Positions 40,179 to 62,995 of a stretch of 64,000 nt of DNA are shown in pieces. The stretch lies in NCBI GenBank assembly GCA_041653515.1, contig JBAZFG010000002.1, forward strand, positions 125,632 through 189,631, in the 5' to 3' direction. The DNA is from Candidatus Nanoarchaeia archaeon. Its GTDB lineage: Archaea > Nanobdellota > Nanobdellia > WJKC01. Under the pieces are notes generated by a model. The model made no database searches and had not been told where the DNA came from. It saw only the letters and a list, made by a program, of their open reading frames with translations. How positions within the stretch are numbered: position 1 is the stretch's first letter; every line of letters starts with the position of its first letter. The translations under genes and the position numbers were made by a program.

Positions 40179-40339
40179 GCCCCCGCAGTTTGGAATAAAC
40201 TTTTTTCAATAAGCAGGGGGATCAGGAAATGCCTAAAACTGAGGGGGATGTGCCCCCGCGGTTTGGAATAAACTTTTTTCAATAAGCAGGGGGATCAGGA
40301 AATGCCTAAAACTGAGGGGGATGTGCCCCCGCGGTTTGG
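40179..40339. repeat. tandem direct repeat, 73-bp unit x 2.2, GC-rich hairpin element
   Basis: Units 40179-40251 and 40252-40324 differ at one position (a/g); a third partial unit 40325-40339 ends at the aglB stop codon; the reverse complement matches the elements at 57371 and 62941. Confidence 0.85.
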
Positions 40340-42958
40340 TTACCAGGCAGGACTGCCGTTATCAACCCATGGCATCATTGCAGTATAATTAATGTGATAA
40401 ATATTAATGTTGGTTGGGTCGTATTGTGATATTAATCCTCTTATGTTTAGTGAGTTACTTGAGTAGACTAATTCAAAACCAGGTATTGTTTCGTTCAATA
40501 AGTATAAGTGAGTCATGAAACGATCATTTAAGTCTGATGGGATGTGAATTAAGCCTCCTTCAATGAATTCAATACAAGAGTCAATGCCGTTAGTCTCATT
40601 AAAGTAAGTGCAGCCATTACCATAATCACAAACGCAATTGTATGGGTGAAGCGTGTTACTGCCCGTAGCTAAGTTATAAACTACTGCTTGTGGCTGACCA
40701 AAAGATTGGTCTTCAGCCATTGGTATTAAAACGTTTACTATGTAACTCTCGCCTTTAGGGAATAATACACCATCAATGATTGTGTCAGCGCCAACATAAC
40801 CTGGTGAGGCTAAGTAATTGAAAACTAGTAGTGTGCTGAATTGTTCAGGATTATACAAGTTATTATCCACTTGCTGGCTGTAAGTGTAAGGTGCGTAATA
40901 ACCTGGCCTGCCACCAATATTAGCCATCTGAACATATTTTAGTATATCATCATCCATGACTAATAAATAATTAGGCCTATTGCCTGTTTCATTATTCTTG
41001 AAGTAATCAAGTGAGTCATAAACCTCTGTCATGTTAAAGCCGCTAAACATTTGGCCGCCAATAACTTCATCCCATACTACTTGGAAGTTACCCCCATCAA
41101 CTGTTGTTGCCCGCTCGCCCATGGTTTGAACCCAGTAACCATAATCCCACCAATGAGTGAATACAGCGTTAGTGTCAGTGTTATTCCTAACCCAACTCAT
41201 TGATTCGCCCCAATCATTAGTGAAGCTTGGAATCATTGTTGAAGCATCTTCAACAATAACATAGTAACTCCATATTACTAATAGTATTGCGACTGCGTAA
41301 ATAGCTGTTGAGTAAACTTTATCACTTGTTATTTTGCTGATTAAATTATTTATCCGCTCAATAGCGTAAGCAGCTAATAACACGAATATTGGGGTGCTAG
41401 CAAAGACAATTCTTATTGCGCCCCTAGTTGCAATAACACTTAAAGCAAACCATAAGATGATTATTAGTTTACTTGGCGTTAACTCACCCCACTTACTGCT
41501 CTTATGGAATTTAATGTAAAATAATATTACTGTTAAAGCCAATAATGGCAGTGTTAGTAAGTAAGTGTTCTCAAAGAATAAATTAATTGCTTCATAACCG
41601 TTTAAGTTAACGAATTTGCTAAACATGAAGAATAAGATGAACACAGTAAACATTATCACTACTGATGTGGCTTTCTTGCCAAACTTACCTAATACTTCTT
41701 GAACTAATAATGCTCCACCAATAACAAATAATGGCACAAACCATTGAAGCCTATGCCACCAGTCAACCCCGTTAGGGTCATAGAACCATGGGGCTTGGTT
41801 TTCAGTAACTGAGACGCAGAAAGCACAAGTGCCAAAAGGGTTTAGTATTGTATCAAGAGCGCCTTGTAGTTTGGCGCCAACATCAAATAATCCAGTTAAT
41901 TGCATTACTGGCAGACCAACCATTATTAATACTGCCATCATTATTACGAAATAAAAATTATCAGGCCACTTCTTGTTCTTGATTAAGTTACTGATGAATA
42001 AATCATAAACAATTTTTAATCCAAGCACTAACGCTGTGATAGTTGGTATTAAGAACATATCAATCATGATTAAACCAAAACCATTATAGCGCAGGGTCAT
42101 TGTAGCGTTCATTAATATTATTGGGATGAACCACGCAAAGTAAGTGATTACGTTTTTATTGCTTAATTTACCCATTAAAGCAAGGAATAGGAATGCTAAG
42201 CCAATGCTGAAGAATAAGAAGTTAGCCCCACCCCAAGTCAGGCTTGATAAGCCAGCTAATACGCCTGATATTAACCCGTAAATTAATGCTTGTTTAGTCT
42301 TATTTGCCCTAATTGATTTGACTAATGCATAAATCATGCTAAACCAAAAGACTGTTGCAAGCGCTTCCTTATCACTAAACCCTGCCATGGTCCTGAATAA
42401 ATATGATGGGATTAATGATAAAAACGCTGTGGCAATTAACGCTGTTTTCTTGTTGAATATTTCTTTAGTCATTAAGAAAAAGAATATCATGCTTATTACA
42501 AACGCAACAACTGGGTAAATCATTGAATAACTCATTAGTTCGCCGCCAAATAATGGGTGAAATATTGTGTATAATCCTGCAACAAAGTAAGACACTAATT
42601 GGTGCTCCTTGAAAGTGCTAAAACCTTCTGGAAAATAACGAAATGAATCCATTTCAGGCAGGGTGCCCTGCTCCACTAGTGTTTCAGTGTAGCGGTAAAA
42701 AACATACGGGTCAAGACCAAGCAATAAACCATTGTATAATGGTATGCTTAGCATCCTAACCCAAGCCCCAACTAATATAATACTAATTAATGCTGCGTAT
42801 AATATTATCTTCTTATTTTCTTTGAGGAATTTTACTGCTTCGCCAAAATTAAGTTCATCCTCATCAGTGGTTGCTGGTTTTTTCTCTTTCTTATCACTGC
42901 TAAACCAGCCTTTAATCTTTCGCCCTATCTCCCCGAAATCAATTTCTTCATCACTCAA
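40340..42958 (-). CDS. aglB: archaeal oligosaccharyltransferase AglB (STT3 family)
   Basis: 'FTHWWDYGYWVQTMG' canonical WWDYG motif; N-terminal 'GLDPYVFYRY' first-loop DxD-type motif; ~13 TM helices plus a C-terminal soluble domain. Confidence 0.85.
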   Translation of the reverse strand: MSDEEIDFGEIGRKIKGWFSSDKKEKKPATTDEDELNFGEAVKFLKENKKIILYAALISIILVGAWVRMLSIPLYNGLLLGLDPYVFYRYTETLVEQGTLPEMDSFRYFPEGFSTFKEHQLVSYFVAGLYTIFHPLFGGELMSYSMIYPVVAFVISMIFFFLMTKEIFNKKTALIATAFLSLIPSYLFRTMAGFSDKEALATVFWFSMIYALVKSIRANKTKQALIYGLISGVLAGLSSLTWGGANFLFFSIGLAFLFLALMGKLSNKNVITYFAWFIPIILMNATMTLRYNGFGLIMIDMFLIPTITALVLGLKIVYDLFISNLIKNKKWPDNFYFVIMMAVLIMVGLPVMQLTGLFDVGAKLQGALDTILNPFGTCAFCVSVTENQAPWFYDPNGVDWWHRLQWFVPLFVIGGALLVQEVLGKFGKKATSVVIMFTVFILFFMFSKFVNLNGYEAINLFFENTYLLTLPLLALTVILFYIKFHKSSKWGELTPSKLIIILWFALSVIATRGAIRIVFASTPIFVLLAAYAIERINNLISKITSDKVYSTAIYAVAILLVIWSYYVIVEDASTMIPSFTNDWGESMSWVRNNTDTNAVFTHWWDYGYWVQTMGERATTVDGGNFQVVWDEVIGGQMFSGFNMTEVYDSLDYFKNNETGNRPNYLLVMDDDILKYVQMANIGGRPGYYAPYTYSQQVDNNLYNPEQFSTLLVFNYLASPGYVGADTIIDGVLFPKGESYIVNVLIPMAEDQSFGQPQAVVYNLATGSNTLHPYNCVCDYGNGCTYFNETNGIDSCIEFIEGGLIHIPSDLNDRFMTHLYLLNETIPGFELVYSSNSLNIRGLISQYDPTNINIYHINYTAMMPWVDNGSPAW

Positions 42959-42965
42959 TTTAACA

Positions 42966-43784
42966 TCATACTCCTAATGAAATGTAAACCTCTAATAATC
43001 CCCCGATTATTAATACAATGCTTGCAAGCACTATTAAATCAATGGAATCAAGTAATACCTCTTTAAATTTATTACTCTTAGGGTCATGCCTTATTACTGC
43101 TGCACTAATAATGCCTCCTGCAATGCCTGCGAGGAAGTAAGCAATTAATTCTGGCAGACCATGAACTAAGTAACGACCAAACCCTAGTGGCACTGCCTGA
43201 AAATAAGAAGACCAATTACTAATATTGGTTTTAATTGCGTTGCCAATAGCGACGCCGAGCACGCTTGAGTTCCACGTGATAATAAATATTGCGCCCGCCC
43301 CGTATAATAAGCTAAATATTAAGCAGAAGAGTAATACTTTGAAGTTATTGGCTAATATTATTTTTAATAAATCTGTTTGCACTGCATTGCCTTGAATGGC
43401 TGATGAGTTAATGCTTCTGATAGTGTTTATTTGCTCTGAGAATATTTTTGCGTTAAGGCTGTCAGGCATTATGACATACCATGTGGTGAATGTTATTAAT
43501 AATCCCATTGACATGAAGAATATTACGCCGAGCACATCTTTATGATTGCCAATTAAGGGGTATTGTTTTTTGGTGAAATCCTCTGATTCCTCTCGTTTTA
43601 GCACGTTAACTAGTAATGGCACGCCAGCCATTGTTGTAAGAAAAACCATACTTAATGACGGGTCTGATGGGAATAACCACATGCTGACTACTAAGCCAAG
43701 GCTCGCGTATATCACGCCTAATATTGTCATTTTCCAAGGCTTGGCTCTAACTTCTTTACTGCTTAATATTGACTCAAAAACCAT
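42966..43784 (-). CDS. integral membrane protein (SpoIIM/DUF95-like)
   Basis: 272 aa, about six hydrophobic helices; no catalytic motif recognised. Confidence 0.35.
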   Translation of the reverse strand: MVFESILSSKEVRAKPWKMTILGVIYASLGLVVSMWLFPSDPSLSMVFLTTMAGVPLLVNVLKREESEDFTKKQYPLIGNHKDVLGVIFFMSMGLLITFTTWYVIMPDSLNAKIFSEQINTIRSINSSAIQGNAVQTDLLKIILANNFKVLLFCLIFSLLYGAGAIFIITWNSSVLGVAIGNAIKTNISNWSSYFQAVPLGFGRYLVHGLPELIAYFLAGIAGGIISAAVIRHDPKSNKFKEVLLDSIDLIVLASIVLIIGGLLEVYISLGV

Positions 43785-44838
43785 TAATCACCTCTAATTT
43801 TCGGCTCCTGCCTTGGAATCCTTCGCCAGTATCAGTTGCTTTGATTAGTCCTTGTTTTCTTAATCGGTTAATGTAGCGCCTAAAACTCCTAATGCTTAAT
43901 TCGCCATGTATCTCGCGGTAATTCTTGTAAGCATCGCCGCTAATAATATTAGGGTTCTCTTTTATGATGTTAATTATTTTTTCTTCATGGTCGCTTAATT
44001 CCTGAGGTAAGTTAATAGTTATTGTCTTAATTGCTTCTTCAACGTGCTTGACTGTTATTTTCCTGCTAGCATCCCGCTCAGCCCTGCGTCCAGCTTCTAA
44101 TAATAAGTTGATTGCTTTCCTAACATCTGTGCCTGAATTAATACTTACTTCATGGACTACTCCTTCGCTTACAACACTTGGGTGGAACGCTTGTTTGGCC
44201 CTGCGTTCAATAATGTTTTTCATCTCGCGCGTAGTGTATGGCTTGAACTCCATGTTATTAAGGTTTAATCGCGACATTAATCGTGGTTCAATATAATTCT
44301 TGTACTTAGGGTTGTTAGTGACCATTAAGATGCATACCCGTTCTAAGTTTAGTAATGAGTATATTATGTCAAGGTCTTTTATTTTATCCACTTCATCAAG
44401 GCAGACTACTGCTCCTTTTTCCCTTAGTTTTCTCATCGCGTTATTAAGTATTTCTTCGGTCGGCACACCTTTAGGGGGATAGAGCATGCCTAATCGTCGC
44501 GCTATCTCTAAAGCTATTGTGTGAGTGGTCTGGCTTTCCCAGCAATTAATGAATACTGGTACAATATCGCTGGTCTCTTTTAATTCGTTAAAAATATATT
44601 TGATGCTCGCTGTCTTGCCAAGCCCAGGCATGCCGTGGATGAATACATTACTCCCTAAGCGATTTTGTAATAATGGTTTGATGAAACTAGCTATTTCTTT
44701 AATCTCATTGTCCCGTTCAGGCATTTCTTCTGGTTGGAATTTATAATCGAGAATAGTTTCATCCTTGAACAAAGTCTCGTTGTCCATCAGGATATCTTTG
44801 AATAAGCCCCCCATAATAGTAAGGGACACGCTAATCAT
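43774..44838 (-). CDS. orc1: Orc1/Cdc6 replication initiator (AAA+)
   Basis: Walker A 'GMPGLGKTAS'; 'VCLDEVD' Walker B; C-terminal winged-helix region. Confidence 0.85.
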   Translation of the reverse strand: MISVSLTIMGGLFKDILMDNETLFKDETILDYKFQPEEMPERDNEIKEIASFIKPLLQNRLGSNVFIHGMPGLGKTASIKYIFNELKETSDIVPVFINCWESQTTHTIALEIARRLGMLYPPKGVPTEEILNNAMRKLREKGAVVCLDEVDKIKDLDIIYSLLNLERVCILMVTNNPKYKNYIEPRLMSRLNLNNMEFKPYTTREMKNIIERRAKQAFHPSVVSEGVVHEVSINSGTDVRKAINLLLEAGRRAERDASRKITVKHVEEAIKTITINLPQELSDHEEKIINIIKENPNIISGDAYKNYREIHGELSIRSFRRYINRLRKQGLIKATDTGEGFQGRSRKLEVINGF

Positions 44839-44892
44839 TATTAAAGGTTCCGATAATAAGTCTTAAATAATTGTTAAGCACAATAATTAATC

Positions 44893-45384
44893 ATGGCAAA
44901 GGAGTTTTCAGATAATTTAGGTGATAAAGCTAATGAGGATTATCAGCAAACACTTGAGATTATTTTTAGCTCAATTCTTGACCCATTGTTTGAGTTACAA
45001 AACGATGTTTTTGAGTTAAAGGGTTATGTGACTAATGTGCTGCCTGATTATATTAAAAAGTTAGTTACAACTGGTGTTGAAGAATTATACGTTAAAATAA
45101 TTGCATTCTTTAATGAGCGTGACCGAAAAATAAATGATTATTTTGACCAACAAAGAGGTCAGATTAATCAGCCAACTAATATTCCTGTTAATAGTTATGT
45201 TGTAGGTAACACTGCTATTGGTTTTAAGACGCTTGATGATTTAACCCCGCCACCGCCGCCTAAGAAGCTTGATCAATCATTTGAGAGTTCTATGTGTGAA
45301 GTAAAAAATAAACAGGATACTGTTCGTAAAAATATTATTGATGAATTAAAAGAATTGTTTACTAAGCGCGGCCCAATTGATTAA
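44893..45384 (+). CDS. hypothetical protein
   Basis: 163-aa ORF, acidic, 'PPPPPKK' linker; AT-rich. Confidence 0.4.
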   Translation: MAKEFSDNLGDKANEDYQQTLEIIFSSILDPLFELQNDVFELKGYVTNVLPDYIKKLVTTGVEELYVKIIAFFNERDRKINDYFDQQRGQINQPTNIPVNSYVVGNTAIGFKTLDDLTPPPPPKKLDQSFESSMCEVKNKQDTVRKNIIDELKELFTKRGPID

Positions 45385-45848
45385 TTTCTTAGTATATTAA
45401 CTGCTTTGATTGCTTTAATGAGCATTTTCTTGTTGACTGGTTTATTGCTTTTTAATGCGTTTTGTTGTTGTTTCCTATGCAATTCATTTATTGAGTAGCT
45501 TAGTATTACTTCAACACTTTTATCATAGTAACCGCTGGTTTTTAAGTAATAAGTGCCGTTTCCGAAATAAGTTATTCTAATATTATACTCATCGGTTTTA
45601 CTAAGCCCTACTGCTGTGAATGAATTCTTTGCTGGTGTCTTAATTGATTGATTAATCATCTGTTCTAACTGGCTGATTGATAACTCTTTTTGGTTAAGTG
45701 TTTTAAGGCTTTTTTCTTTAGCACTGATTAATTCAAGTGTTAACCCGCTTAGCCAGCCAATTGCAACGTATGTTTTTCCTGTTATTGCTTTGCTCATTTC
45801 TTGAGCAACGAATAACTCATCATCAAATTTTAGTGATGTGTACATCAT
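45381..45848 (-). CDS. hypothetical protein
   Basis: 155-aa ORF with no recognisable motif. Confidence 0.4.
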   Translation of the reverse strand: MMYTSLKFDDELFVAQEMSKAITGKTYVAIGWLSGLTLELISAKEKSLKTLNQKELSISQLEQMINQSIKTPAKNSFTAVGLSKTDEYNIRITYFGNGTYYLKTSGYYDKSVEVILSYSINELHRKQQQNALKSNKPVNKKMLIKAIKAVNILRN

Positions 45849-45877
45849 TAATTGTTTCTTTTTATTATCTTATATAC

Positions 45878-46393
45878 TTAATTGGTTGATTCAAATAAGT
45901 TGTTGAGTGTTTTGTAATCAATTATTAGGCTTTTTTTTAGCTGAAATTTTGTTGTGTTAATTAATTGTTCTTGGTTTAAGTCTTTGATTTTGTTTACTTT
46001 GATGATTACATCATCCTCGTTCTTGATTATTACTGAGTCAATAGTATTGTATTGGGTAAACGTATTAGTTCTTAACTCAAATTGTTTGTTCTTCTTAACT
46101 ATTTTAAGGAAACTAAAATAACCTTCATCAAATAAAGGTTCTTTCATTGAATCATTAATTATGTTGTTAAACTCATTTTTGTTAATAAATTTATATGGGT
46201 TAATTATTATTAATCTAACCTCATCTAATCTTAACATACCTATTAATTGCTCTCTTCTTCTTCCCATTAATGCTGCTAAATTGATTGGTCCATGGTTGAA
46301 ATCATACCAGTAGTTAGTAATTAATTTATGGTCATTGCTCTCTCTAATCTTATGATTAACATCTGGTTTTGGTTTGTATTGGCCATTATTCAT
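45878..46393 (-). CDS. hypothetical protein
   Basis: 171-aa ORF with no recognisable motif. Confidence 0.4.
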   Translation of the reverse strand: MNNGQYKPKPDVNHKIRESNDHKLITNYWYDFNHGPINLAALMGRRREQLIGMLRLDEVRLIIINPYKFINKNEFNNIINDSMKEPLFDEGYFSFLKIVKKNKQFELRTNTFTQYNTIDSVIIKNEDDVIIKVNKIKDLNQEQLINTTKFQLKKSLIIDYKTLNNLFESTN

Positions 46394-46444
46394 ATTCTTT
46401 ATTACCCATAATCTTTTTTATAACAATTACTGTCCTACAATCCC

Positions 46445-47440
46445 ATGGGTGTTAATATTCGCGATTTAGTTACGCCAGTTAGGACAGACCTTAAGTCTTT
46501 ATCTGGCTGTAAGATTGGGGTTGACGCTTTTAACTGGTTATACCAGTTTATCTCAACTATCCGCCAGCCTGACGGCACGCCGTTAATGGATTCTAAAGGC
46601 AGGGTGACTAGTCATTTAACTGGCTTATTTTATCGGGTGTTTAAGTTGCTTGAGTATGGGATTAAGCCTTGTTTTGTTTTTGACGGCAAAGCGCCTGATT
46701 TTAAGTTAGTGACTGCTGAGCGTGTTAAGCGTAAGGTTGAGGCTAAGCGTAAGTATGCGCAAGCGTTGGCTGAGGAGGATTTTGTTCGCGCCCGCAGTCT
46801 GGCAGGTCAGACGAGCCGATTAACTGGTGAAATGGTATCTCAGGCTAAGGAGTTAATCATTGCTATGGGCTTGCCTGTTATTCAGGCGCCAAGCGAGGGC
46901 GAGGCCCAGATTGCTTATATGACTAGTCAGGGTGATTTTTGGGCTAGTGCTAGTCAGGATTATGATACTTTGTTGTTTGGTAGTCCGCGGTTGGTTAAGA
47001 ATATTAATATTGTTGGCAAGAAGCGCTTGCCTCGTGGTGGTTTTGTTGAGGTTGTGCCTGAAGTGATTGAATTAAAATCATTACTTGAATCACTTGGCTT
47101 GTCCCGAGAGCAATTAATTCAGCTTGGCGTATTAGTTGGTACTGATTTTAATCCTGGCGGGGTTAAGGGTGTTGGGCCTAAGACTGCGCTTAAATTAGTC
47201 CGCGCTCATACTAATCCTTTTACGCAAGTTGATTGGGTATCCAGTATTAAACCTGAGTTTATTATTGATTTTTTCCTTCATCCACCAGTGATTAAGGATT
47301 ACAAACTGGTTTGGTCTGCGCCTGATTTTGATAAAGTTAAGTCAATCTTAACTTCATTTGAGTTTAGTGAGACAAGGATTGAGAATGTTTTTAAGAAATT
47401 CCGTGAGTCAGGTCAATCACAATTAAATAAGTGGTTTTAG
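46445..47440 (+). CDS. fen1: flap endonuclease FEN-1
   Basis: 'MGVNIRDLV...CKIGVDAFNWLYQF...KPCFVFDGKAP' N-domain; 'GTDFNPGGVKGVGPKTALKL' H3TH motif. Confidence 0.85.
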   Translation: MGVNIRDLVTPVRTDLKSLSGCKIGVDAFNWLYQFISTIRQPDGTPLMDSKGRVTSHLTGLFYRVFKLLEYGIKPCFVFDGKAPDFKLVTAERVKRKVEAKRKYAQALAEEDFVRARSLAGQTSRLTGEMVSQAKELIIAMGLPVIQAPSEGEAQIAYMTSQGDFWASASQDYDTLLFGSPRLVKNINIVGKKRLPRGGFVEVVPEVIELKSLLESLGLSREQLIQLGVLVGTDFNPGGVKGVGPKTALKLVRAHTNPFTQVDWVSSIKPEFIIDFFLHPPVIKDYKLVWSAPDFDKVKSILTSFEFSETRIENVFKKFRESGQSQLNKWF

Positions 47441-48112
47441 TTATTTTCTTTTTTTCTTGAAAAAACTCTTAGCAGGTCCTTCCTTGATCGCCCAGCCAAA
47501 ACCAATGCCAATAGCAAGGCTAATACCAAGACTAACCCCTAATACAATATACTTAAAAGTGTCTTCGAGTAAGCTTGTGTTAGTTAGGCCGAATTTTGGT
47601 AAAGCCATTACCACTGCAAAGAATAATATAATGCCATAAACAATTTCTGCTATTGTCTCGTTGAATGGTATTGCGTTGCTCTTGATTTTCTTGCGCACGA
47701 AGTCAGCAAATACCATTGCAATAATTATTATTCCTGCCCCAACGCTTACTTCTGGTATTGCTCTTATTATGCCGTCAAATAATTCTGCCAAGAAAGTTAG
47801 GCTGGTCCTGACAGCTGCTTCTTTGAGGAATATAATGATAATGTAATACTTAACTATTAAGCTGACCGCATTAGTTACTGATATATTATAGAGTGATTCT
47901 TTTAGTTTCATTTTTTTTAGCCATTCATCAATTTGTGAGGCAGTCATTAATTTCTTGATTATTACTTCACTTATTTTTGCCACAACCCAACCGAGTAGTA
48001 ATATTAGTAATGCAGTGATTATTTTTGGCAAAGCTAGTATTAATGCTGTGGCTGATTCTTGTAATGCTTGAGCTGGTAATTCAACAATATTTAGTAAAGT
48101 ATCATTAACCAT
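47441..48112 (-). CDS. integral membrane protein
   Basis: Multi-TM; the likely start is the internal 'MVNDTLLNIV' rather than the upstream extension that overlaps the next gene. Confidence 0.4.
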   Translation of the reverse strand: MVNDTLLNIVELPAQALQESATALILALPKIITALLILLLGWVVAKISEVIIKKLMTASQIDEWLKKMKLKESLYNISVTNAVSLIVKYYIIIIFLKEAAVRTSLTFLAELFDGIIRAIPEVSVGAGIIIIAMVFADFVRKKIKSNAIPFNETIAEIVYGIILFFAVVMALPKFGLTNTSLLEDTFKYIVLGVSLGISLAIGIGFGWAIKEGPAKSFFKKKRK

Positions 48113-48170
48113 TATTCTTGTCTTAATGACCGTTAATTTTAAAACGTTTACTAATACTATTATTATTTGT

Positions 48171-48443
48171 ATGGAGCTTGATTCACAGTTAGAAAAAGAG
48201 TACGCGCGCACTGTTTTCGCGTTTAAAGAGTTATCAGTGACTGACTCACAGCAAGCGCGTGAATTATATGAGCTGGTTAAATCTTATTATGATGACGCGC
48301 TTCACTTTTACAATAAGGGCTTGAAATTAGAATCTTTTGAGTTATTCGCTTATGTTTGGGGTTTGCTTGACGCTGGCGCCAGGCTTGGTTTGTTTGACCC
48401 TGGTGCTGCGCGCCAGCACTATAAGATAGAGCAACATATTTAA
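48171..48443 (+). CDS. conserved hypothetical protein
   Basis: ORF from 'MELDSQLEKEY...'. Confidence 0.3.
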   Translation: MELDSQLEKEYARTVFAFKELSVTDSQQARELYELVKSYYDDALHFYNKGLKLESFELFAYVWGLLDAGARLGLFDPGAARQHYKIEQHI

Positions 48444-48469
48444 ACCATTAATCTTTCTTTTTTCTTTTA

Positions 48470-49274: not shown

Positions 49275-49294
49275 AATCCTTATATGCGCATCCT

Positions 49295-50197: not shown

Positions 50198-50204
50198 TAA
50201 TTCA

Positions 50205-53534: not shown

Positions 53535-53556
53535 ACTCCTTAAATAAATTCTTATT

Positions 53557-55597: not shown

Positions 55598-55621
55598 ATA
55601 ATTGATTTAGCATTTTTTTGT

Positions 55622-56797
55622 TTAAGTAATTAGTCTTTCCCTGATTTTAGTGACTTCGTTTCTTAGTTTTTCTTCATTAATGCCCAATAAGTTCTTGCCA
55701 TCACGAACAATTTCTTTTCCTTTTAAGTAAACGCTTTTGATTGCGTTCTTATTCATTATTTTAGCTACAAATTCACTAACTGTCTTAAATGGTTTTAATT
55801 GGCTCATATCAATTAGTGAGAAACTAGCTTCGCTTTCTGGCCCGAATGGCTCATGAGTCATAGTGTATGCTTGATTAATTGTTACGCCAGTGAGCTCGTA
55901 GGACTCCCATGCTTCATTTAATATTGATGATGATGGGTTCCAAGCGTAACTGTCAGTGCCTAGTAACATTTTAACATTATTATTAAGCATTACTTTGTTT
56001 GGCGGCGCGTTATCACTAATCGCTTTATTGCTCGTCGGGCAGTGCATTACTTGAACGTTATTTTCAGCTAACATTAATATGTCCTTGCTGTCAGCGTAAG
56101 TGCAATGAGCTAACCTTAAGTCATGCTCAAGCATTCCAAGACTATTCAAGTAATCAATTGTTCTCATGCCAGTTAATTTCTTTATATGCTTAACATCCTC
56201 AAGTGTCTCGCATGCGTGCATGTGAATTGGCAGGTCATTTTCCTGTGCAAACAATAATCCTTCTTTTATTAATTGTGGTGTGCATTCATACTCGTTAGCT
56301 AAGCCTAACATTATTTTATTGCCGTACTTCTTTTTTAATTCAAGCGTTTGGTTGAATTGTTTGCTAATACTGCTTTTCTCTTTATGAGCATCCTTGACTG
56401 CAAGGCAAGCAGTGTAACCTAACTTGCATTTATTAATTGCTTTAATTACTGGCTCAGGGTTCATGTCCATGGTGTCAACATGAGTCACGCCTTCCTTGAT
56501 TGATTCAAGGCAGGCTAACAGTGATGCTTTGTAAACATCAATTGTTTTGCGCCTGTCATGAACCTTAAAACCAATATTATCAAAATACTCATATTTTTTC
56601 AAGCCAAGCGCAGCCCCACTCACTGCTCGACTACCAAGGTGAACGTGAGCGTTAGTTAATCCTGGCAGTAAGAATAAGCCAGTGCAATCAACGCCTTTAC
56701 TCAGGTTGTTCTTAATGTAATGAACTGATTGGTCAAAGAATATGTCTGTCTTGATTAACCGACCACCTTTCAGAATAGTGATATTATTGAGTATCAT
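55622..56797 (-). CDS. amidohydrolase (MTA/SAH-deaminase or cytosine/guanine-deaminase-like)
   Basis: 'LPGLTNAHVHL' HxH metal site; 'HMHACE' and 'GTDSYAWN' later motifs. Confidence 0.65.
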   Translation of the reverse strand: MILNNITILKGGRLIKTDIFFDQSVHYIKNNLSKGVDCTGLFLLPGLTNAHVHLGSRAVSGAALGLKKYEYFDNIGFKVHDRRKTIDVYKASLLACLESIKEGVTHVDTMDMNPEPVIKAINKCKLGYTACLAVKDAHKEKSSISKQFNQTLELKKKYGNKIMLGLANEYECTPQLIKEGLLFAQENDLPIHMHACETLEDVKHIKKLTGMRTIDYLNSLGMLEHDLRLAHCTYADSKDILMLAENNVQVMHCPTSNKAISDNAPPNKVMLNNNVKMLLGTDSYAWNPSSSILNEAWESYELTGVTINQAYTMTHEPFGPESEASFSLIDMSQLKPFKTVSEFVAKIMNKNAIKSVYLKGKEIVRDGKNLLGINEEKLRNEVTKIRERLIT

Positions 56798-56823
56798 TGA
56801 TTAATCTTTAAGTATTTTAATGC

Positions 56824-57300
56824 TTAAATAATATATTTCTCAAACAAGTTGCCTGGTCCTTTACTTGTTTTATAAAGCGTGTGTTTTTTTAGCCAATTAA
56901 TTAAGTTCATAGTTTTCTTATTATTAGTTAAGTGCAAGCCCCATGTTGATGGGTCACAAATGTATTCTTCTTCTTGATAAGTAAATTTATTCCAAACGTG
57001 ACTTAATGGTTCATTAAAGAACTCATTTGTAAGTAAGTAATTTCTGCCTTCAATGATTTTATTGTAAGCTTTACCCATTATCATAATTGTTTTAAATTGT
57101 TTATTCTCTGATAAGACGTTGTTTAGGAATTGTGCGAAGTGATTGCATAAACCTCCTTTATTTATGAATTCATTAGTGGTGGTTTCCCAATTATTTGGCG
57201 CGCAATAAGGGATATTAGCAATCGTTTCTTCAAGAAATAATTCTAATTCCTTTATGTTATTTATTTTTTTATGATAAGTGTTGTCAATTATATCATTCAT
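56824..57300 (-). CDS. transglutaminase-like cysteine peptidase domain protein
   Basis: Putative Cys-His-Asp triad in order: 'GGLCNHFAQF', 'SHVWNKF', 'ICDPSTW'. Confidence 0.4.
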   Translation of the reverse strand: MNDIIDNTYHKKINNIKELELFLEETIANIPYCAPNNWETTTNEFINKGGLCNHFAQFLNNVLSENKQFKTIMIMGKAYNKIIEGRNYLLTNEFFNEPLSHVWNKFTYQEEEYICDPSTWGLHLTNNKKTMNLINWLKKHTLYKTSKGPGNLFEKYII

Positions 57301-57336
57301 GTTAAATTAACTTTTTTTTAGTATTTTTAAAGTTTT

Positions 57337-57488
57337 TTAGAAATCACTGAGTTTTTTCTGCTTAGTCCCTAACCGCAGGGAGGGGTGACCCCTCCCTTCA
57401 GTTTTAGGGTAATCCTGATTCCCACCCCCCTACGATTGTAATTATGCCAGAGACATGTTAGAAATCACTGAGTTTTTTCTGCTTAGTC
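57337..57488. repeat. GC-rich hairpin element (57371-57430) bracketed by a perfect 31-bp direct repeat (57337-57367 / 57458-57488)
   Basis: 'ttagaaatcactgagttttttctgcttagtc' occurs twice; the second copy is the last 10 codons plus stop of nucS; between them lies 'aaccgcagggaggggtgacccctcccttcagttttagggtaatcctgattcccacc'. Confidence 0.8.
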
Positions 57489-58210
57489 TTATCAACTATG
57501 TTCCTGTTTGGTGGTTCTACTTGGCAGAACTTAAAGCTCCAGTCATGGAGCATTTGTTCAGCGTTCTTAGTGATGCCTGGCGCTGCGATGTAACCAATGA
57601 CTTTGTCAATTCCTTTAGCTGCCTTGATTCTCTCAACGTAGCGCCTTAGTTGTTGGACCGCGCTAAGCCCGGCAGTCACTCGCTTACACTCAATAATTAT
57701 TAATGCTCCTTCACCATCATGGCCCATCACGTCAATAAAACCATATTTTGTTTGTTCTTCAAGGCTGACTGGCCTAAAGTCAATGCTAATAATATGTGGG
57801 TGCTCATAAATCATGCGCGCCATGTCAGCTTCACTGCCCATAATCATTACTTCTTCATCATCGCTTAGTTGGCCTGAGATTAGTAAGTCAATGCTGGTTA
57901 TTTTAATGACCATTTGTTCTCTTGGGTTGATTGATTCAGCAGTGATGAATAATGAGTCGCCAGCTTCAACCCTGATGCTCGCGCCTTCTTTTATCCAGTT
58001 AACTGGGTTCCTGCCTGTTGGTTTGTGAACTAATAGTGTTTTGTCTGTTTTGATGGTGACTGCCCTGCCGCCCCGCTCGAGCTTTGAGTAAGCCCTGCCT
58101 TCATACTTAACCTCGCACTCGCAGTAAAGTGTGATTAACTCGTTTCGCTTGAGTGCTTGGTCTAATACGTTCTTGGTTGTATCAAAATCAGGTTTAACAT
58201 AATTGCTCAT
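57458..58210 (-). CDS. nucS: endonuclease NucS/EndoMS
   Basis: C-terminal RecB-like nuclease motif 'GFIDVMGHDGEGALIIIECKR'; N-terminal dimerisation/ssDNA-binding-like region. Confidence 0.7.
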   Translation of the reverse strand: MSNYVKPDFDTTKNVLDQALKRNELITLYCECEVKYEGRAYSKLERGGRAVTIKTDKTLLVHKPTGRNPVNWIKEGASIRVEAGDSLFITAESINPREQMVIKITSIDLLISGQLSDDEEVMIMGSEADMARMIYEHPHIISIDFRPVSLEEQTKYGFIDVMGHDGEGALIIIECKRVTAGLSAVQQLRRYVERIKAAKGIDKVIGYIAAPGITKNAEQMLHDWSFKFCQVEPPNRNIVDKTKQKKLSDF

Positions 58211-58263
58211 CTAATTCTTTATCTCGATACACATATAAATTGATTTTGTTATCTTTATTATTC

Positions 58264-58647
58264 ATGGAAGTTATTGTTGACATTTTTGATCCTAGCAAAC
58301 AGGAGTTCATTATTGGTGACCGTAGATTACCAAGCTACTTTGTTGGTAATGTAATTGGTCATTTAAAGGGTTATAAATTGTTAGGGGATGATAGTGTCCA
58401 GCAGATGCTTCCGTTACTTAATGAAATTGAATTAAATATGTATAAAACGCTTGATGATAAAACTACTCAATTAAGATTCTTGGCTTCTAAGCTGGTTGAG
58501 AAATTAACTTTTTTTGGCTCATATGACGAGCGAGTTATTATCTTAGAGGATTTCATTAACTCTGAATGTGATATGTATGTTAAGAAATTAAGGATTGATG
58601 ACCAGACTAAGAAAGAGTTAAAGCGCTTAATGGCTCTTACTCGATAA
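58264..58647 (+). CDS. hypothetical protein
   Basis: ORF taken from 'MEVIVDIF'; no motif recognised. Confidence 0.3.
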   Translation: MEVIVDIFDPSKQEFIIGDRRLPSYFVGNVIGHLKGYKLLGDDSVQQMLPLLNEIELNMYKTLDDKTTQLRFLASKLVEKLTFFGSYDERVIILEDFINSECDMYVKKLRIDDQTKKELKRLMALTR

Positions 58648-61456
58648 GTATTCCTGGTTTGCATGGCATTGCTTTCGGGTTATCTGCTTTGACTACATCA
58701 ACTTCTGTGTTATACTCTTGTTCAAGGAATTTGATTGCTTCGTTTAGTGATTGGTACTCACCATTCCTGTCTGGCGCGCTTAATGGCACGCGGCTTGGGT
58801 TCCTGATTAATGACTGGATGATGCCTGTCGCGTCCTTGGCGTGAGCTTTGACTGAAGCGTTCTTTAAGGCATTAGTAATTAATTCTTTTAAGTCATGCTT
58901 GTTCTTTGACTTAACCACTGATTTGTATAAGTCATACTTCCATTGGTCAGCGATGAATAATGTTATCTTTTTTGGTTTTGTTTTTATTATGCTTAATAAA
59001 CCATTAATGTCCTTGATTGTGTTCATTATTATTGATTCGTTCTGCTCAATTGATTGGTTAATCATTGATTCATTGATTTTTGGGAATCGGGCTAGTGAGA
59101 CAAACCCTTTGTTAATTTTGCTCCAAGCCTCCTCGCAGATGTGGGGTATTAATGGCTCGAGTGCTATCAGCCAGTCAGCTAGGAAAGTCCTGATTACACT
59201 ATTAAATTGTTGCGCGCTCACTCTTTTCTTGTAGTAGTTAAGCTCGTTCATGAACTCAAAGAAAATGTTAATTGCGTAAGGCCTAATCATGATATTACAT
59301 CCCTGCTCGTAAGCTTCTTTTATTCTTGAGTAAAAACGGCTGGTAATCCACTTGTCGATGCTGGTTAATTTCTTGGCTGGCAGCGCTTTACTTGCTGTCA
59401 GCACTAGATTAGCAAAATTAGTTATTTTTGTTTTGACGCTGGCAACCTCGTTCTCGCGCCAGTCAACTACTGAGTCAATGTCGCTTGAGCTTAATAAGAA
59501 CATTCTTAGTAAGTCAGCGCTGTACTTTTCAGCTACTTCAGCTAATGGTATAACGTTGCCTTTGCTCTTACTCATCTTAACCCCTTCGCGGATGACCATT
59601 TCGTTGAAACTTATTTCTTTTGGCCAGTACTTTTTGGGGAATATCTTGGTGTGGTGGAATAAGAAGAATGTTAGGTGGTTGCTGATGTGTGCTGGCGCAG
59701 TGTGGCGGTGGTCAAGTGGGTACCAATAAGTGAAATCTTCACGCATCTCACGCGCCCATTTAACTTTAAACTCACCTTTACCTAGGAATACATAATCAAA
59801 TAATTCAGGGGTTAATTGTTCTGGTTTTATTTTCTCGCGGTGAATAATGTTAATGATTGTGTAAAATGCCATGTAAATCGTTGAGTCGCTTAAGCTTTCA
59901 ATAACCCACTTGTCATCATAAGGCAGTTTTGTGCCTAAGCCTCTTTTGCGCGCGCAAGGTCTTTTCTCAAGCCAGTCAACCGTGTCAATGAATGACTTGC
60001 GGTACTTGTCAGGTATTATTGTCATATCATTAATTAATCTTCTAGTCTTGTCTTTCCATTCTTTGCTTGTGTAATCAAGGAACCATTGATCGTTAAGCAC
60101 TGCCACTATTACCTTGCCAGTGCAACGGCACTCAGCTTTGCGGCTGGTCTCGTAGAATGTGAAAGCGTCGCCTTGGCTTATTAGTTTGTTCCTGACACGG
60201 TCTTTAATTTCATTTATCTTGAGTCCTTTGAATTCAGCGCACTTTTCATTAAGCACTCCTTTGTAGAATTCATCTTTGTAAACCCTCTTGGTTGCTTGTT
60301 CTATTAGTTCCTTGTTGCGTTGGTTTTTAACGCCTAATTTGTTAATCATTTCAACTGCAGGTTCATTGCTGTAACCCTCAATGTTAATGATTGTTATTGG
60401 CTTAATTGACTTGATTTCCTTACTGTCAAGCCCGTAATCAGTTATGCCCTTGCTATCATTTTGCAAGTCTCTTAATGCTGCGTAATCAAACGGTGCGTGG
60501 GCTGGCACTGAGTAAACAATGCCTGTGGCCACGTCTGGGTCAACGAACTGACCTGGAAGTATTGGTACTTCAGTTCCTAATGGGGTGGTGACGTGTTTGC
60601 CTATTAGCTCTGTGCCAGCTAGTTCCCTTGTTTTCTTTAATCCTGTTTGCTGGTATTTTAATTTGTTGAATGCTTCAACGCTTATGATTAAGTTATTATT
60701 AGTCTCAACGTACAATGATTCAGGGTTAACCCATAAGTTAGTAATGCCATAAATTGTTTCAGGCCTTAGTGTACCTGCTACTAATTGTTTGCTGCCTAAA
60801 TCGAATTTGATTGCAGTGAACTCATTAATGCTTACTTTATCAGCGTCACCATCCTTAATATCATCCTCGCCAACAGCGTTGTCACAGTTAACACAGAAAT
60901 TAATTGGGTAACTACCCTGGGTTAATGCTTTGCCTTGTTTTAGTTTTTTAAACTGCCATTCAATAAATTTATTGTACTCTTTGTCGCCAGTGGTGAATTG
61001 TCTTGTCCAATCAACGCTGACCCCAATACTCTCAAAGTCTTGTCTGATAACGCTGGCGAAGTGCTTGGCAACGTTCATTGGTTCCTTGAATGACTCAATT
61101 ATCTTCTTGACTTTACTTTCATCTTTTTCTCTTAAGCGGACGTAATTAGTGAATAACTCGATGTAATTCTTATCACCTTTCCTTATGCGGTCGCTGATAG
61201 CTAATATTGGCGTGCCTGAGATGTGATAAGCCATGGGCCATAAGACATTATAACCTTGCTTTCGCTTGAAGCGCGCAATGAAGTCGCCGATACTGTAAGT
61301 CCTGCCGTGGCCAATATGGTAAGGGCCACTGGTATATGGGTATGGTACTGTGAAGAAATACTTCTTGCCTGTTTTTTTGGGCTCAAAGATTTTATCCTTA
61401 ACCCATTGCTTCTGCCACTTACGCTCTATTTTAGATAAATCCATCTTGTTAATCAC
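58637..61456 (-). CDS. leuS: leucyl-tRNA synthetase (archaeal type)
   Basis: 'PYPYTSGPYHIGHGRTY' HIGH; 'KMSKSKGNV' KMSKS; 939 aa with a CP1 editing-domain insertion. Confidence 0.9.
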   Translation of the reverse strand: MINKMDLSKIERKWQKQWVKDKIFEPKKTGKKYFFTVPYPYTSGPYHIGHGRTYSIGDFIARFKRKQGYNVLWPMAYHISGTPILAISDRIRKGDKNYIELFTNYVRLREKDESKVKKIIESFKEPMNVAKHFASVIRQDFESIGVSVDWTRQFTTGDKEYNKFIEWQFKKLKQGKALTQGSYPINFCVNCDNAVGEDDIKDGDADKVSINEFTAIKFDLGSKQLVAGTLRPETIYGITNLWVNPESLYVETNNNLIISVEAFNKLKYQQTGLKKTRELAGTELIGKHVTTPLGTEVPILPGQFVDPDVATGIVYSVPAHAPFDYAALRDLQNDSKGITDYGLDSKEIKSIKPITIINIEGYSNEPAVEMINKLGVKNQRNKELIEQATKRVYKDEFYKGVLNEKCAEFKGLKINEIKDRVRNKLISQGDAFTFYETSRKAECRCTGKVIVAVLNDQWFLDYTSKEWKDKTRRLINDMTIIPDKYRKSFIDTVDWLEKRPCARKRGLGTKLPYDDKWVIESLSDSTIYMAFYTIINIIHREKIKPEQLTPELFDYVFLGKGEFKVKWAREMREDFTYWYPLDHRHTAPAHISNHLTFFLFHHTKIFPKKYWPKEISFNEMVIREGVKMSKSKGNVIPLAEVAEKYSADLLRMFLLSSSDIDSVVDWRENEVASVKTKITNFANLVLTASKALPAKKLTSIDKWITSRFYSRIKEAYEQGCNIMIRPYAINIFFEFMNELNYYKKRVSAQQFNSVIRTFLADWLIALEPLIPHICEEAWSKINKGFVSLARFPKINESMINQSIEQNESIIMNTIKDINGLLSIIKTKPKKITLFIADQWKYDLYKSVVKSKNKHDLKELITNALKNASVKAHAKDATGIIQSLIRNPSRVPLSAPDRNGEYQSLNEAIKFLEQEYNTEVDVVKADNPKAMPCKPGILIE

Positions 61457-61545
61457 TTATTAACTCCTCTTTTTTTAACGTTGCGTAATTATTATCGCAT
61501 TATTTTTTTAAGATTTTTCCCAAGAAGACTTTAAATAATCCTAAT

Positions 61546-62748
61546 GTGTGTTCATTATTCATGCGCAATAATCTTAATAATTTCTTTGTTGAGCGCGTGA
61601 AGCACTTTAAGCACATGGCTTCATTATCCAATACTTTTTTCTTTTACTTGTTCGCCTGGGGTCTAGTCACGCCAATATTTAATATTCATATTAATGAAGT
61701 GACTAATTCACTTTTCTTGTCCGGCATTATCTTTTCTGTGTTTGGTTTTGCTAGAATATTTTTTGACCCGTCAATCGGTTTGTTATGCGACCGCGTTAAC
61801 CCTAAGAGATTATTGCAGGGTAGTCTATTGTCTTATACATTAATATTTTTCTTATACACGATTGCTAATAATTTTTATTTATTATTAATCGTGCGAGTAT
61901 TGCACGCAATTGCTTGTGCCATGCTCTGGATTTCTGGTTGGACTTTAGTTAGATTAAAGAGTAAAGGTAATTCTGCTCAGGAAGAGATTAGTGTTTGGTA
62001 CTCAGTTCAGTACATTGCTTATGTTATTGCTCCTTTAATTGGTGGCTCGTTGATAACAATGTTTTCGTGGCAACCTGTTTATTACTTAGCGTCAATAACT
62101 GCTTTTATTGCTTTTGTTTACGCTTCAATTAATGTTAAGAGTGTTCATACAAGTAATAATAGTAAGAAGCGGTTTAGGGATTTATGGCACCAGTTCTTCA
62201 TAAATAAATCATCATCAATTAGGCTAGTATTATTAACATTCCTTGAAATATTAATCGTGATTGGTTTCTATGAGTTCATGCCATTATTATTAGATCAGGC
62301 TGGGCTTAATATTGAGGAGATTAGCGTTGTGTTTGCTTTGGCTTATACTACCCCATTTATTTTATTCCCAGTAATTATTGGAGTTATTAGTGATAAGTAT
62401 GGTCGCAAAATACCAACTGCTATTGGTTTGATAATCATTAGCTTTGGGTTATTATTGTTCTGCAACGCCAGTACTTTTACTCAATTCCTGTTTTATACTT
62501 TCATTATTGTTACTGGTGATGCGTTTGTTAACTTAAGTTTTAACGCAGAGCTTAATGATATGACACCAAAAAACAGTGCTGGTGGTTTTACTGGTATTTT
62601 TGAGATGATTAAGGATTTGGCTGTGGCCATCGGCCCGTTGTTAGTTGGTGTTTTAAGTGCTGTAACTAATATTTCATTTGCTTTTATAATAATGAGTGTG
62701 ATGTCATTAGGCACTATATTAGTGCTTAAAGGGTTTAAGAATTTCTAA
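61546..62748 (+). CDS. MFS transporter
   Basis: About 12 TM helices; 'DRVNPKR' loop 2-3 motif region. Confidence 0.6.
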   Translation: MCSLFMRNNLNNFFVERVKHFKHMASLSNTFFFYLFAWGLVTPIFNIHINEVTNSLFLSGIIFSVFGFARIFFDPSIGLLCDRVNPKRLLQGSLLSYTLIFFLYTIANNFYLLLIVRVLHAIACAMLWISGWTLVRLKSKGNSAQEEISVWYSVQYIAYVIAPLIGGSLITMFSWQPVYYLASITAFIAFVYASINVKSVHTSNNSKKRFRDLWHQFFINKSSSIRLVLLTFLEILIVIGFYEFMPLLLDQAGLNIEEISVVFALAYTTPFILFPVIIGVISDKYGRKIPTAIGLIIISFGLLLFCNASTFTQFLFYTFIIVTGDAFVNLSFNAELNDMTPKNSAGGFTGIFEMIKDLAVAIGPLLVGVLSAVTNISFAFIIMSVMSLGTILVLKGFKNF

Positions 62749-62791
62749 AAGCAAGCCTTAAAAAGTAATTAATTCTTTTCTAAATATTAGT

Positions 62792-62935
62792 GGGCCCGTA
62801 GCGCAGTTTGGATAGCGCGACAGGCTTCTACACTCGACGCTTCGCGTCTCGTTCCGTCCTTCGGACGGCCGCTCGCTTAAAACGAGCGGGGGTGAGGATA
62901 CCTGTAGGTCGTGGGTTCAAATCCCTCCGGGCTCG
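62792..62935 (+). tRNA. tRNA-Arg(TCT) with 69-nt intron at canonical position 37/38
   Basis: Acceptor GGGCCCG/CGGGCTC, D-stem GCGC/GCGC, anticodon stem ACAGG/CCTGT separated by 'CTTCTA'+intron+'A'; T-loop TTCAAAT; one T-stem mismatch; the intron carries two hairpins (ccgtcc-ttc-ggacgg; gctcg-cttaaaa-cgagc). Confidence 0.7.
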
Positions 62936-62940
62936 CACGA

Positions 62941-62995
62941 AAACCGCAGGGAGGGGAGACCCCTCCCTTCAGTTCATCTCCTGATTCCCACCTCC
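62941..62995 (+). repeat. GC-rich hairpin element, copy immediately 3' of tRNA-Arg
   Basis: 'aaccgcagggaggggagacccctcccttcagtt...cctgattcccacc' is nearly identical to 57371-57430; 9-bp stem agggagggg/cccctccct. Confidence 0.8.

Follow-up and report, generated by a model that had tools for sequence, protein, structure and literature searches.

A stretch of 64,000 nt from the genome of a Candidatus Nanoarchaeia archaeon (contig JBAZFG010000002.1, positions 125,632–189,631; the window in what follows) was found to carry, at three loci, copies of a short non-coding element with an overall size of about 46–280 nt and a conserved core of about 58 nt. The element is a multi-copy interspersed repeat common to several archaeal phyla and it is a mobile insertion element, which we regard as close to certain. 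The explanation favored here, with a probability of about 55%, is a copy-and-paste element similar to the short interspersed nuclear elements (SINEs), whose copying would start at a nicked target from a fixed, structured end. The initial annotation of the window, made from its sequence alone, had proposed for these repeats a terminator or 3'-untranslated region (3'-UTR) stabilizer hairpin, or a small non-coding RNA, as an alternative to a mobile element. The structured-element and mobile-element readings are not alternatives, since the repeat combines mobility with a structured core.

The motif strand is defined as the strand carrying [CNR]AACCGC, a GC-rich hairpin, TCAGTT, a spacer of about 9 nt, TCCTGAT and a run of C, which is also the strand written in the initial annotation. 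In the window, with a GC content of 37%, this motif was present as four full copies and one 16-nt partial copy, distributed over the aglB, nucS and tRNA loci (Table 1). The AGGGAGGGG, TCAGTT..CCTGAT and AACCGC..TCAGTT patterns gave 4 matches each, against 0.08, 0.17 and 0.05 expected, respectively. A covariance model built from other genomes only recognized exactly these four copies in the 64 kb (E 9e-13 to 1e-8), with no other credible match. In agreement with the initial annotation, motif counts and covariance model place four copies of a hairpin with a downstream box where it had put them; a stem that ranges from 9 bp to 5 bp with pairing kept was likewise observed, and its aglB label was confirmed by the Pfam STT3 domain. 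The sense orientation directly after a gene, stated there for the aglB and tRNA copies, was found at these two loci; copy B, at the nucS locus, is antisense to both neighbors. A weak covariance-model match (CTGAACCGC..CCCC, 11 bits, E 0.95) inside an amine-oxidase open reading frame (ORF) at 32147–32176 of the minus strand was rejected as a copy of the element; it has no hairpin and is most likely due to chance.

At locus A the units A1 and A2, 99% identical, are in tandem. The first base of A1 (core 40285–40339, tail of 18 nt) directly follows the TAA stop codon of aglB, and the third, partial unit (CCAAACTGCGGGGGCA) consists of the first 16 nt of the element alone and stops in the hairpin loop. 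Copy B (core 57368–57428, tail of 29 nt) lies antisense to nucS as well as to the gene that follows. Copy C (core 62939–62994, tail of 69 nt) begins 3 nt past a tRNA gene and has the same sense as the tRNA; its middle loop is shortened and the pseudoknot partner described below is absent.

Target-site duplications, not noted in the initial annotation, were found at copies B and C (Table 1). The orphan repeat at B corresponds to the last 31 nt of nucS, including the stop codon, read on the complementary strand. In a relative (L122; L numbers designate loci or contigs obtained from other assemblies) with a NucS 90% identical to that of the window, the nucS site is empty: the 31-nt segment is present once, and the nucS stop codon is directly followed by the upstream region and the start of a homologue of the 158-aa gene of the window. 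Since the L122 site holds neither the element nor the second repeat, the window nucS allele corresponds to the empty site plus a 90-nt element and a 31-nt duplication. Two further relatives (L125 and L126) share with the window the gene order Cdc6-SpoIIM-STT3-GT4-GT22, and their STT3–GT4 spacer is about 35 nt without the element versus 198 nt in the window. A constant presence of the element at orthologous sites, and an ancestral origin of the duplicated sequence, are contradicted at these two loci. The junction of the partial unit at locus A is also found in an independent Logan assembly of another run, which is interrupted at the repeats of both A and B; the arrangements seen in the window are therefore not the artefact of one assembler.

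Table 1. Copies of the element in the window, their target-site duplications and adjoining genes.
Feature	Positions	Strand	Basis
Copy A1, full 73-nt unit	40267–40339	-	Covariance model 59.5 bits, E 1.8e-11
Copy A2, second full 73-nt unit	40194–40266	-	Covariance model 59.5 bits; repeat search family D4
Partial third unit (CCAAACTGCGGGGGCA), 16 nt	40178–40193	-	Sequence; same junction in independent Logan assembly (L127)
STT3/AglB gene, neighbor of locus A	40340–42958	-	Pfam STT3
Copy B, 90 nt	57368–57457	+	Covariance model 65.4 bits, E 9.4e-13
Target-site duplication at B, orphan copy	57337–57367	.	31/31 identical to 57458–57488; repeat family D17
Target-site duplication at B, genuine nucS 3' end	57458–57488	.	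Logan contig L001 breaks exactly here
nucS gene	57458–58210	-	Pfam NucS_N and NucS_C domains
Copy C, 125 nt	62939–63063	+	Covariance model 46.8 bits, E 1.2e-8
Target-site duplication at C, copy 1 (CTCCGGGCTCGCAC)	62925–62938	.	Last 11 nt of tRNA plus 3 nt
Target-site duplication at C, orphan copy 2 (CTCCGGGCTCACAC)	63064–63077	.	13/14 identical to copy 1
Intron-containing tRNA, target of copy C, outside the element	62792–62935	+	Rfam RF00005, 49.7 bits

Further copies were collected with patterns that fixed AACCGC, TCAGTT and TCCTGA. A degenerate pattern applied to the GTDB genomes (one per species) gave at least 114 stretches, all of them in archaeal metagenome-assembled genomes (MAGs). The lineages carrying the element, at least six, are Micrarchaeota, Aenigmatarchaeota, Altiarchaeales, Woesearchaeota, Iainarchaeum and Nanoarchaeota, together with unclassified DPANN-like bins. 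Among the GTDB matches listed, several genomes had 3–5 contigs each and many matches were located at contig ends. A looser pattern gave at least 120 further stretches in the JGI metagenomes. More than 240 copies were gathered in total. No match was obtained in the metagenomes with a pattern aimed at AAACGC variants. The six pattern matches in the IMG/VR viral contigs were all due to chance, none having the G/C hairpin, and thus nothing pointed to a carrier of viral or plasmid nature.

In the genome set, 30 copies were flanked by direct repeats of 11–61 nt enclosing inserts of 46–191 nt. The upstream repeat ended 0–5 nt before AACCGC in 30/30 of these copies, and exactly 3 nt before it, the most frequent offset, in 13/30. 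The metagenome set, which is independent, gave the same picture: 25 of the 99 testable copies had an exact repeat, 11 nt or longer, anchored at the boundary, versus 1/99 with displaced control anchors (44–68 nt), and the most frequent offset was again 3 nt (11/25). The duplications, recognizable in about a quarter to a third of copies, had a median length of about 26 nt and reached about 60 nt. Their length was not constant even among the copies of a single genome, with 10, 19 and 22 nt seen in a first genome and 13–31 nt in a second. Around the same module the repeats differ wholly from locus to locus, and inspection of the listed junctions showed no common target sequence.

Independent insertions 12 nt apart were found at two paralogous sites of a single genome (L053 and L091), and arrays of the type target-element-target-element-target at L051, as well as at L027 and L049. 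A CRISPR array was considered for such tandem loci and rejected, because at L051 and at window locus A the target piece and the element both repeat and there are no unique spacers. Another insertion (L050) lies within a 54-nt tandem array of 3.6 copies (positions 5101–5297 of that locus, from a Bilamarchaeaceae MAG). Units related to this array at other loci of the same genome (L063, L084 and L104) were also repeatedly struck by the element.

The insertions sit between genes, in many cases where a tRNA gene or a protein gene ends, and selection against gene disruption in compact genomes probably explains why gene ends are frequent in the duplications. The flanking repeats could also be read as attL and attR cores, the module being an integrase arm site left behind after loss of the integrated element; duplicated tRNA and gene 3' ends, with the gene left intact, are what integrative elements produce. 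However, the same module lies everywhere between unrelated repeats, and a site-specific recombinase needs its core on the element. In addition, the inserts measure 46–280 nt only, repeat length is continuous and no integrase is found nearby. We consider the attachment-site scar reading close to refuted.

The two ends of the element differ. The conserved end is sharp, usually 3 nt before AACCGC, with a longer leader in some subfamilies. The other end is lineage-specific, often contains a second covarying hairpin and is cut at differing points. In a genome of the Micrarchaeota, for example, the second copy of the target repeat directly follows tails that are collinear but have lengths of 12, 37 and more than 150 nt. 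The smallest complete insert (L115), of about 60 nt, scarcely exceeds the core. The tail of one Micrarchaeota genome (L003, L035, L045, L068 and L102) is an imperfect hairpin of about 80 nt, located about 20–110 nt past the core, which varies between copies in a compensatory way; the Altiarchaeales and Woesearchaeota subfamilies have different second hairpins. No longer, autonomous version was found, copy-to-copy similarity never extending more than about 160 nt past the core with the sole exception of a paralogous gene pair. Terminal inverted repeats were not detected in the 25 duplication-delimited elements (best match 9.2/25, versus 8.6 ± 1.4 in shuffled sequences). Tandem or partial units occur at window locus A, L002, L051, L027, L092 and L107, and the partial ones end 10–16 nt into the element, in the G-run or in the hairpin loop (window A, L002, L092, L107, L059 and L072).

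The fold of the core was analyzed in a structure alignment of 85 distinct copies, with 123 metagenome copies as the replication set. Hairpin P1 was 93% paired in the 85 copies, none of 500 shuffles reached its covariation score, and the score was best at register 0. A pseudoknot joins the start of the element to its middle segment. Element nt 1 pairs with middle-segment nt 5 (C-G in 79 copies), and element nt 2 with middle-segment nt 4 (col2:col42), where C-G was found 47 times, U-A 16, G-C 12, U.G 3 and other combinations 6; the 123 metagenome copies gave CG57/GC23/TA13. Since near-identical backgrounds differ at these two positions alone (TCAGGGTCC with CCG, TCACGGTCC with CGG and TCAAGGTCC with CTG), the pseudoknot changes are repeated and compensatory. 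In subfamilies with a longer leader the pseudoknot is also longer, as exemplified by GGAA with TTCC. The middle loop is closed by x2:x8, which covaries in both sets.

P1 is extended by five base pairs (P1a, AACCG with CAGTT). The invariant C.A of P1a on the motif strand is a G.U wobble on the complementary strand, and a double compensatory change, AAACGC with TCATTT, was found in two divergent copies from different genomes. A TCAG/CTGA stem in the middle region was discarded, because it clashes with P1a and both AAACGC/TCATTT variants keep P1a and break that stem. The results for P1, the pseudoknot, x2:x8 and P1a all recurred in the 123 metagenome copies. We are highly confident that the core is a selected single-strand fold with a pseudoknot, and the proposal of a structured nucleic acid with compensatory variation, made in the initial annotation, is strongly supported. 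When the whole window was compared with Rfam 15, only the tRNA passed the gathering scores; a search of 57300–57500 at E ≤ 10 gave chance matches of 16 bits or less and no ribozyme or intron model, the families covered including twister, pistol, hatchet and group II domain 5/6. A likeness to hepatitis delta virus (HDV)-like ribozymes, the hammerhead or group II domain 5 was rejected for misfit of topology and lack of Rfam signal.

The tract after TCCTGAT mirrors the pyrimidine arm of P1, that is, it reads as the parallel complement of the purine arm. The length of the G-run equaled that of the third-tract C-run in 78/106 genome copies and 104/123 metagenome copies (182/229). Interruptions are mirrored as well, as in GGGGGAGG / CCTCCCCC / CCCCCTCC, in AGGGAGGG / CCCTCCCT / TCCCTCCC, and in AGGGAAA.. 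/ ..TTTCCCT / TCCCTT... By position, the triples switch between A-T.T and G-C.C, with counts of ATT62/GCC10, GCC71/ATT8 and GCC51/ATT18. The pseudo-pair score in the parallel register was 0.429, versus 0.212 in shuffled alignments, with a peak at slide 0 and 0/500 shuffles as high; the T after the C-run showed no covariation with the first purine. Antiparallel pairing between the third tract and the purine arm, which would give an alternative hairpin of riboswitch-like type, won once against 21 times for the parallel arrangement, with 37 ties, and was rejected. The apparent three-way covariation matches the logic of an intramolecular purine-loop-pyrimidine-loop-pyrimidine triple helix. Third-strand bases that covary, in a fixed register, with the Watson-Crick pairs beneath them are the sequence feature of a major-groove triple helix, and a triple-strand interaction in the core is probable from these alignments.

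As to which strand folds, the non-Watson-Crick pairs of P1, read on the motif strand, were A.C 20 times and G.T twice. RNA folding was better for the complementary strand in 25/25 delimited elements, by a mean of 8.3 kcal/mol, part of which is an effect of G/U composition. In our view the functional single strand is, by a slight margin, more likely the complementary one.

The genomic context bears on whether the copies serve their neighbors. Around some 56 well-flanked copies the neighbor orientations were near random (-/- 19, +/- 14, -/+ 12, +/+ 11). A host-serving cis element (a terminator, a 3'-UTR stabilizer or a small non-coding RNA gene) spread by ordinary duplication would account for the covariation, which shows a selected fold, and for the two of three window loci in which the element lies in sense directly past a stop codon or a tRNA 3' end; copy B scored in a terminator scan as a hairpin with a T-rich tail (TCAGTTTTAG). 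The TCAGTT box is followed by 0–2 more T. Against a host-serving role, the scan flagged copy B alone, on the wrong strand for its neighbors, and left copy C (TCAGTTCATC) unscored. Archaeal termination requires just oligo-T. Orientation is near random over the family, with one of the three window loci antisense, an outcome that the initial annotation had itself named as contrary to its proposal. In close relatives the same genes (nucS and aglB) have no element beside them, and target duplications, tandem and partial units and assembly breaks are typical of insertion and not of regulatory modules. A cis element of this kind is thus very improbable, and the terminator or stabilizer hairpin put forward in the initial annotation as an alternative to a mobile element was not sustained. 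No evidence was found that the copies serve neighboring genes.

A tRNA gene (ARAGORN) was found within 250 nt of 45/242 copies, and 35 of those 45 copies were on the 3' side of the tRNA. In duplicated tRNA copies the T-loop is a shared breakpoint (GGATTC|GAACC, antisense strand) of many independent insertions, seen in the upstream flanks of L039, L005, L022, L048, L075, L079, L013, L033, L054, L099, L017 and L096. On the complementary strand, the end of the element itself (..GCGGTTCGG) is similar to a T-arm in its 5' half, and this likeness may explain the T-loop hot spot.

For about 120 copies, the proteins encoded up to 600 nt away formed no cluster of more than three members, and none in a consistent orientation. 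In two unrelated MAGs (L039 4617–5558; L055), proteins with a Fic domain are encoded 96–132 nt away from a copy and on the complementary strand; this neighbor, the only one met twice in that position, is probably a coincidence. No gene for TnpA(Y1) or for a RAYT (transposase associated with repetitive extragenic palindromes, REPs) recurred within 3 kb of about 120 copies. In the approximately 120 copies examined, the partner enzyme is not encoded adjacent to the elements.

These data bear on a derivative of a DNA transposon, of the type of MITEs (miniature inverted-repeat transposable elements) or palindrome-associated transposable elements (PATEs), moved as DNA by a transposase encoded elsewhere, for instance an HUH/Y1 enzyme (like those of the IS200/IS605 or IS91 insertion sequences) that would recognize the hairpin and triplex in single-stranded DNA (ssDNA), or a Cas1-type casposase aimed at tRNA 3' ends. 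Two features of known systems count for this explanation: HUH enzymes recognize a hairpin at one end together with conserved single-stranded boxes beside it, and rolling-circle transposition of the one-ended kind leaves one end fixed and the other variable. The G.T wobbles and a G.G-C/A.A-T triplex would be chemically most comfortable in ssDNA of the complementary strand, and the position of many copies next to tRNA 3' ends recalls casposons and integrases. Nevertheless, terminal inverted repeats are absent, and the duplications are long and vary in length within a single genome; with DDE transposases and casposases the length of the duplication is fixed, and IS200/IS605, IS91 and Helitron elements are not known to make one. 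A transposase gene was not linked to any of about 120 copies and none is present in the window. We consider a DNA transposon derivative unlikely.

The sequence is also an inverted repeat combined with a purine/pyrimidine mirror repeat, and it could have been copied with no dedicated machinery, as a non-B DNA structure that is difficult to replicate, by fork template switching or break repair (of the type of microhomology-mediated break-induced replication, MMBIR, or fork stalling and template switching, FoSTeS), with the insertions and the variable duplications alike as by-products. Duplications of variable length up to about 60 nt, tandem units, partial copies that stop at the G-run or the loop, and the absence of a linked enzyme would all fit such an origin. 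The boundary is nevertheless near-fixed (0–5 nt before AACCGC in 30/30; 3 nt in 13/30 and 11/25), and therefore a template with a defined end is favored over entry by microhomology. Moreover, the conservation of the single-stranded boxes, the pseudoknot and the G.U across phyla argues for recognition by a partner or for catalysis, and passive copying would not keep compensatory changes. Copying of this kind appears quite improbable.

In the SINE-like copy-and-paste explanation that we favor, the template would be a single strand, most likely an RNA complementary to the motif strand, with the structured core at its 3' end. The 3'-OH of a nicked target would prime synthesis from this fixed end, in the target-primed fashion of SINEs and of long interspersed nuclear elements (LINEs); the motif strand would be the first-strand copy and the complementary strand the template. 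Premature stops would lead to truncated tails and template jumping to tandem units. Stalling at the hairpin or G-tracts, which a polymerase copying the complementary strand would meet 10–16 nt in, would lead to partial units, and a second nick at a variable distance to duplications of variable length. The hairpin, pseudoknot and triple-strand module at the template 3' end could recruit the polymerase, or protect or position the terminus.

The features of a SINE that can be read from a sequence were found in the element, which is non-coding, has one conserved and one variably truncated end, and shows variable duplications by comparison with the empty site. Eukaryotic target-primed retroposition yields such footprints; to our knowledge, no prokaryotic transposition pathway yields a fixed end with variable truncation, long variable duplications and tandem or abortive units. 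The more specific proposal of an RNA template copied by reverse transcription is made tentatively. Its strongest form, a first SINE-like retroposon family of prokaryotes with a G/C-rich triple-helix pseudoknot that would present or protect the RNA 3' end, target-primed reverse transcription by a reverse transcriptase or another polymerase having such activity, and a preference for tRNA gene ends, is a doubtful one. With its conserved single-stranded boxes and the invariant G.U, the core could also be a new self-processing ribozyme defining the end of the element.

A number of observations weigh against the SINE-like explanation. No reverse transcriptase, transposase, integrase or Cas1 was found by Pfam in the 51 window ORFs. 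A regular expression for reverse transcriptase motifs had no match in 785 ORFs of the fetched loci, a sample that covers less than 1% of each genome and is nearly uninformative. A recognizable duplication is seen in just 25–30% of copies, and none at window locus A. The RNA intermediate and its strand are putative, and some wobbles favor the motif strand (x2:x8 is T.G four times in each set, and two loci have GACCGC). The chemistry of the triples is ambiguous, being compatible with motif-strand RNA (C+.G-C, U.A-U) or with complementary ssDNA (G.G-C, A.A-T); runs of C+.G-C require protonated C, and purine-motif triplexes (G.G-C, A.A-T) are comfortable in ssDNA with Mg2+ and disfavored for RNA. 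The mirror relation is partly degenerate, as A-Gn-A tracts are symmetric (the 37 ties above). Finally, the conservation of the AACCGC, TCAGTT and TCCTGA boxes is partly built in, because the collecting patterns fixed them.

In its similarity to SINEs and other retroposons without long terminal repeats (non-LTR, LINE-type), the element is short and non-coding, with a conserved structured 3' end (in the RNA sense) and the other end variably truncated. It also shares variable duplications, random orientation, insertion near tRNA genes and the lack of terminal inverted repeats. Tandem copies with the last-made unit incomplete are a likeness to SINEs and Penelope-like elements. It differs in having no poly(A) or simple-repeat tail and no identified partner LINE or reverse transcriptase, in duplications of often greater length, with a median of about 26 nt and a maximum of about 60 nt, and in a hairpin, pseudoknot and triple-strand module without counterpart in SINE tails. 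We know of no non-LTR retroposition in archaea or bacteria.

MITEs, such as the SM elements of Sulfolobus, are likewise multi-copy, short, non-coding, intergenic, mobilized in trans and assembly-breaking, but are defined by their terminal inverted repeats and by a short duplication whose fixed length depends on the parent insertion sequence, neither of which is found in the element. IS200/IS605 PATEs and REP/RAYT systems resemble it in a folded hairpin with adjacent conserved single-stranded nucleotides and in strand-specific action, and in IS608 base triples help to recognize the cleavage site. Those systems, however, make no duplication, use a fixed tetra- or pentanucleotide target and have hairpins at both ends, in contrast to the long duplications, the absence of an evident target consensus and the one conserved end seen here. 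Casposons are also archaeal, often hit tRNA and gene 3' ends, duplicate the target and leave the gene intact, but their terminal inverted repeats, fixed 14–15 bp duplication, kilobase size, and Cas1 and PolB genes have no equivalent in the element.

The core itself recalls the triple helices of the element for nuclear expression (ENE) class (PAN, MALAT1, MEN-beta and the ENEs of plant and fungal transposons) and of the telomerase RNA pseudoknot, with a third strand on a stem near the RNA terminus, covarying base triples and, as proposed role, the protection or presentation of the end to a polymerase. Some of these triple helices occur in transposon transcripts or beside tRNA-like processing sites. 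ENE and telomerase triples are U.A-U (a U-rich internal loop and an A-rich tail), whereas those of the element are G/C-dominated (C.G-C or G.G-C), in a 'paperclip' topology with a terminal pseudoknot of 2–5 bp. With H-DNA and other intramolecular DNA triplexes the element shares the R-loop-Y-loop-Y logic, exactly that of designed triplex oligonucleotides, the third tract mirroring the Watson-Crick pyrimidine tract, but H-DNA consists of simple repeats without conserved flanking boxes, pseudoknot or mobility. Full-text searches of the literature, motif sequences included, gave no description of the element, and DPANN lineages are not mentioned in a survey of REP elements from 2025. Because the defining features of the MITE, PATE/REP, casposon, att-site, terminator and CRISPR classes are lacking, we rate the element as outside the known kinds of prokaryotic mobile element and structured RNA, a rating to be read together with a mechanism inferred from footprints and with collecting patterns that fixed three boxes.

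Regarding the remaining content of the window, Pfam assigned only glycosylation and housekeeping genes among the 51 ORFs. Positions 1–44000 form a large glycosylation and polysaccharide island, with two STT3/AglB paralogues (12863–14770 and the gene next to locus A) and over 10 glycosyltransferases, besides nucleotidyl-transferases, B12/radical-SAM enzymes and DUF362 proteins. Pfam gave no match for two ORFs at 1701–7279 of the minus strand, of 909 and 950 aa. The region 7288–8443 appears to be a broken paralogue of the GT4-family glycosyltransferase at 10659–11789 (repeats D1, D2 and D11, 73–82% identical), with a C-terminal Glycos_transf_1 fragment of 133 aa (7288–7689) as the sole ORF left. 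An ORF of 158 aa between nucS and an amidohydrolase gene (56824–57300, minus strand) had no Pfam match; it appears to be a lineage-specific gene, since it is kept in the closest relative (L122) and absent in L124, where nucS is directly followed by the amidohydrolase gene. ARAGORN detected no tRNA in the window; the tRNA hit by copy C is interrupted at the canonical 37/38 position by a GC-rich, structured-looking intron of about 70 nt, and its anticodon, read by eye, is TCT (Arg).

If the SINE-like explanation is correct, the DPANN and Altiarchaeal genomes, among the smallest and most streamlined known, would carry pan-phylum tiny mobile elements that are invisible to annotation pipelines, and these elements would cause breaks in assemblies and reshape tRNA and protein genes at their ends. 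The core of about 58 nt would be a G/C-rich three-stranded helix locked by a terminal pseudoknot and absent from Rfam, and would provide a test case for triplexes in RNA or ssDNA. The question of LINE/SINE-type retroposition outside eukaryotes would then become directly testable.

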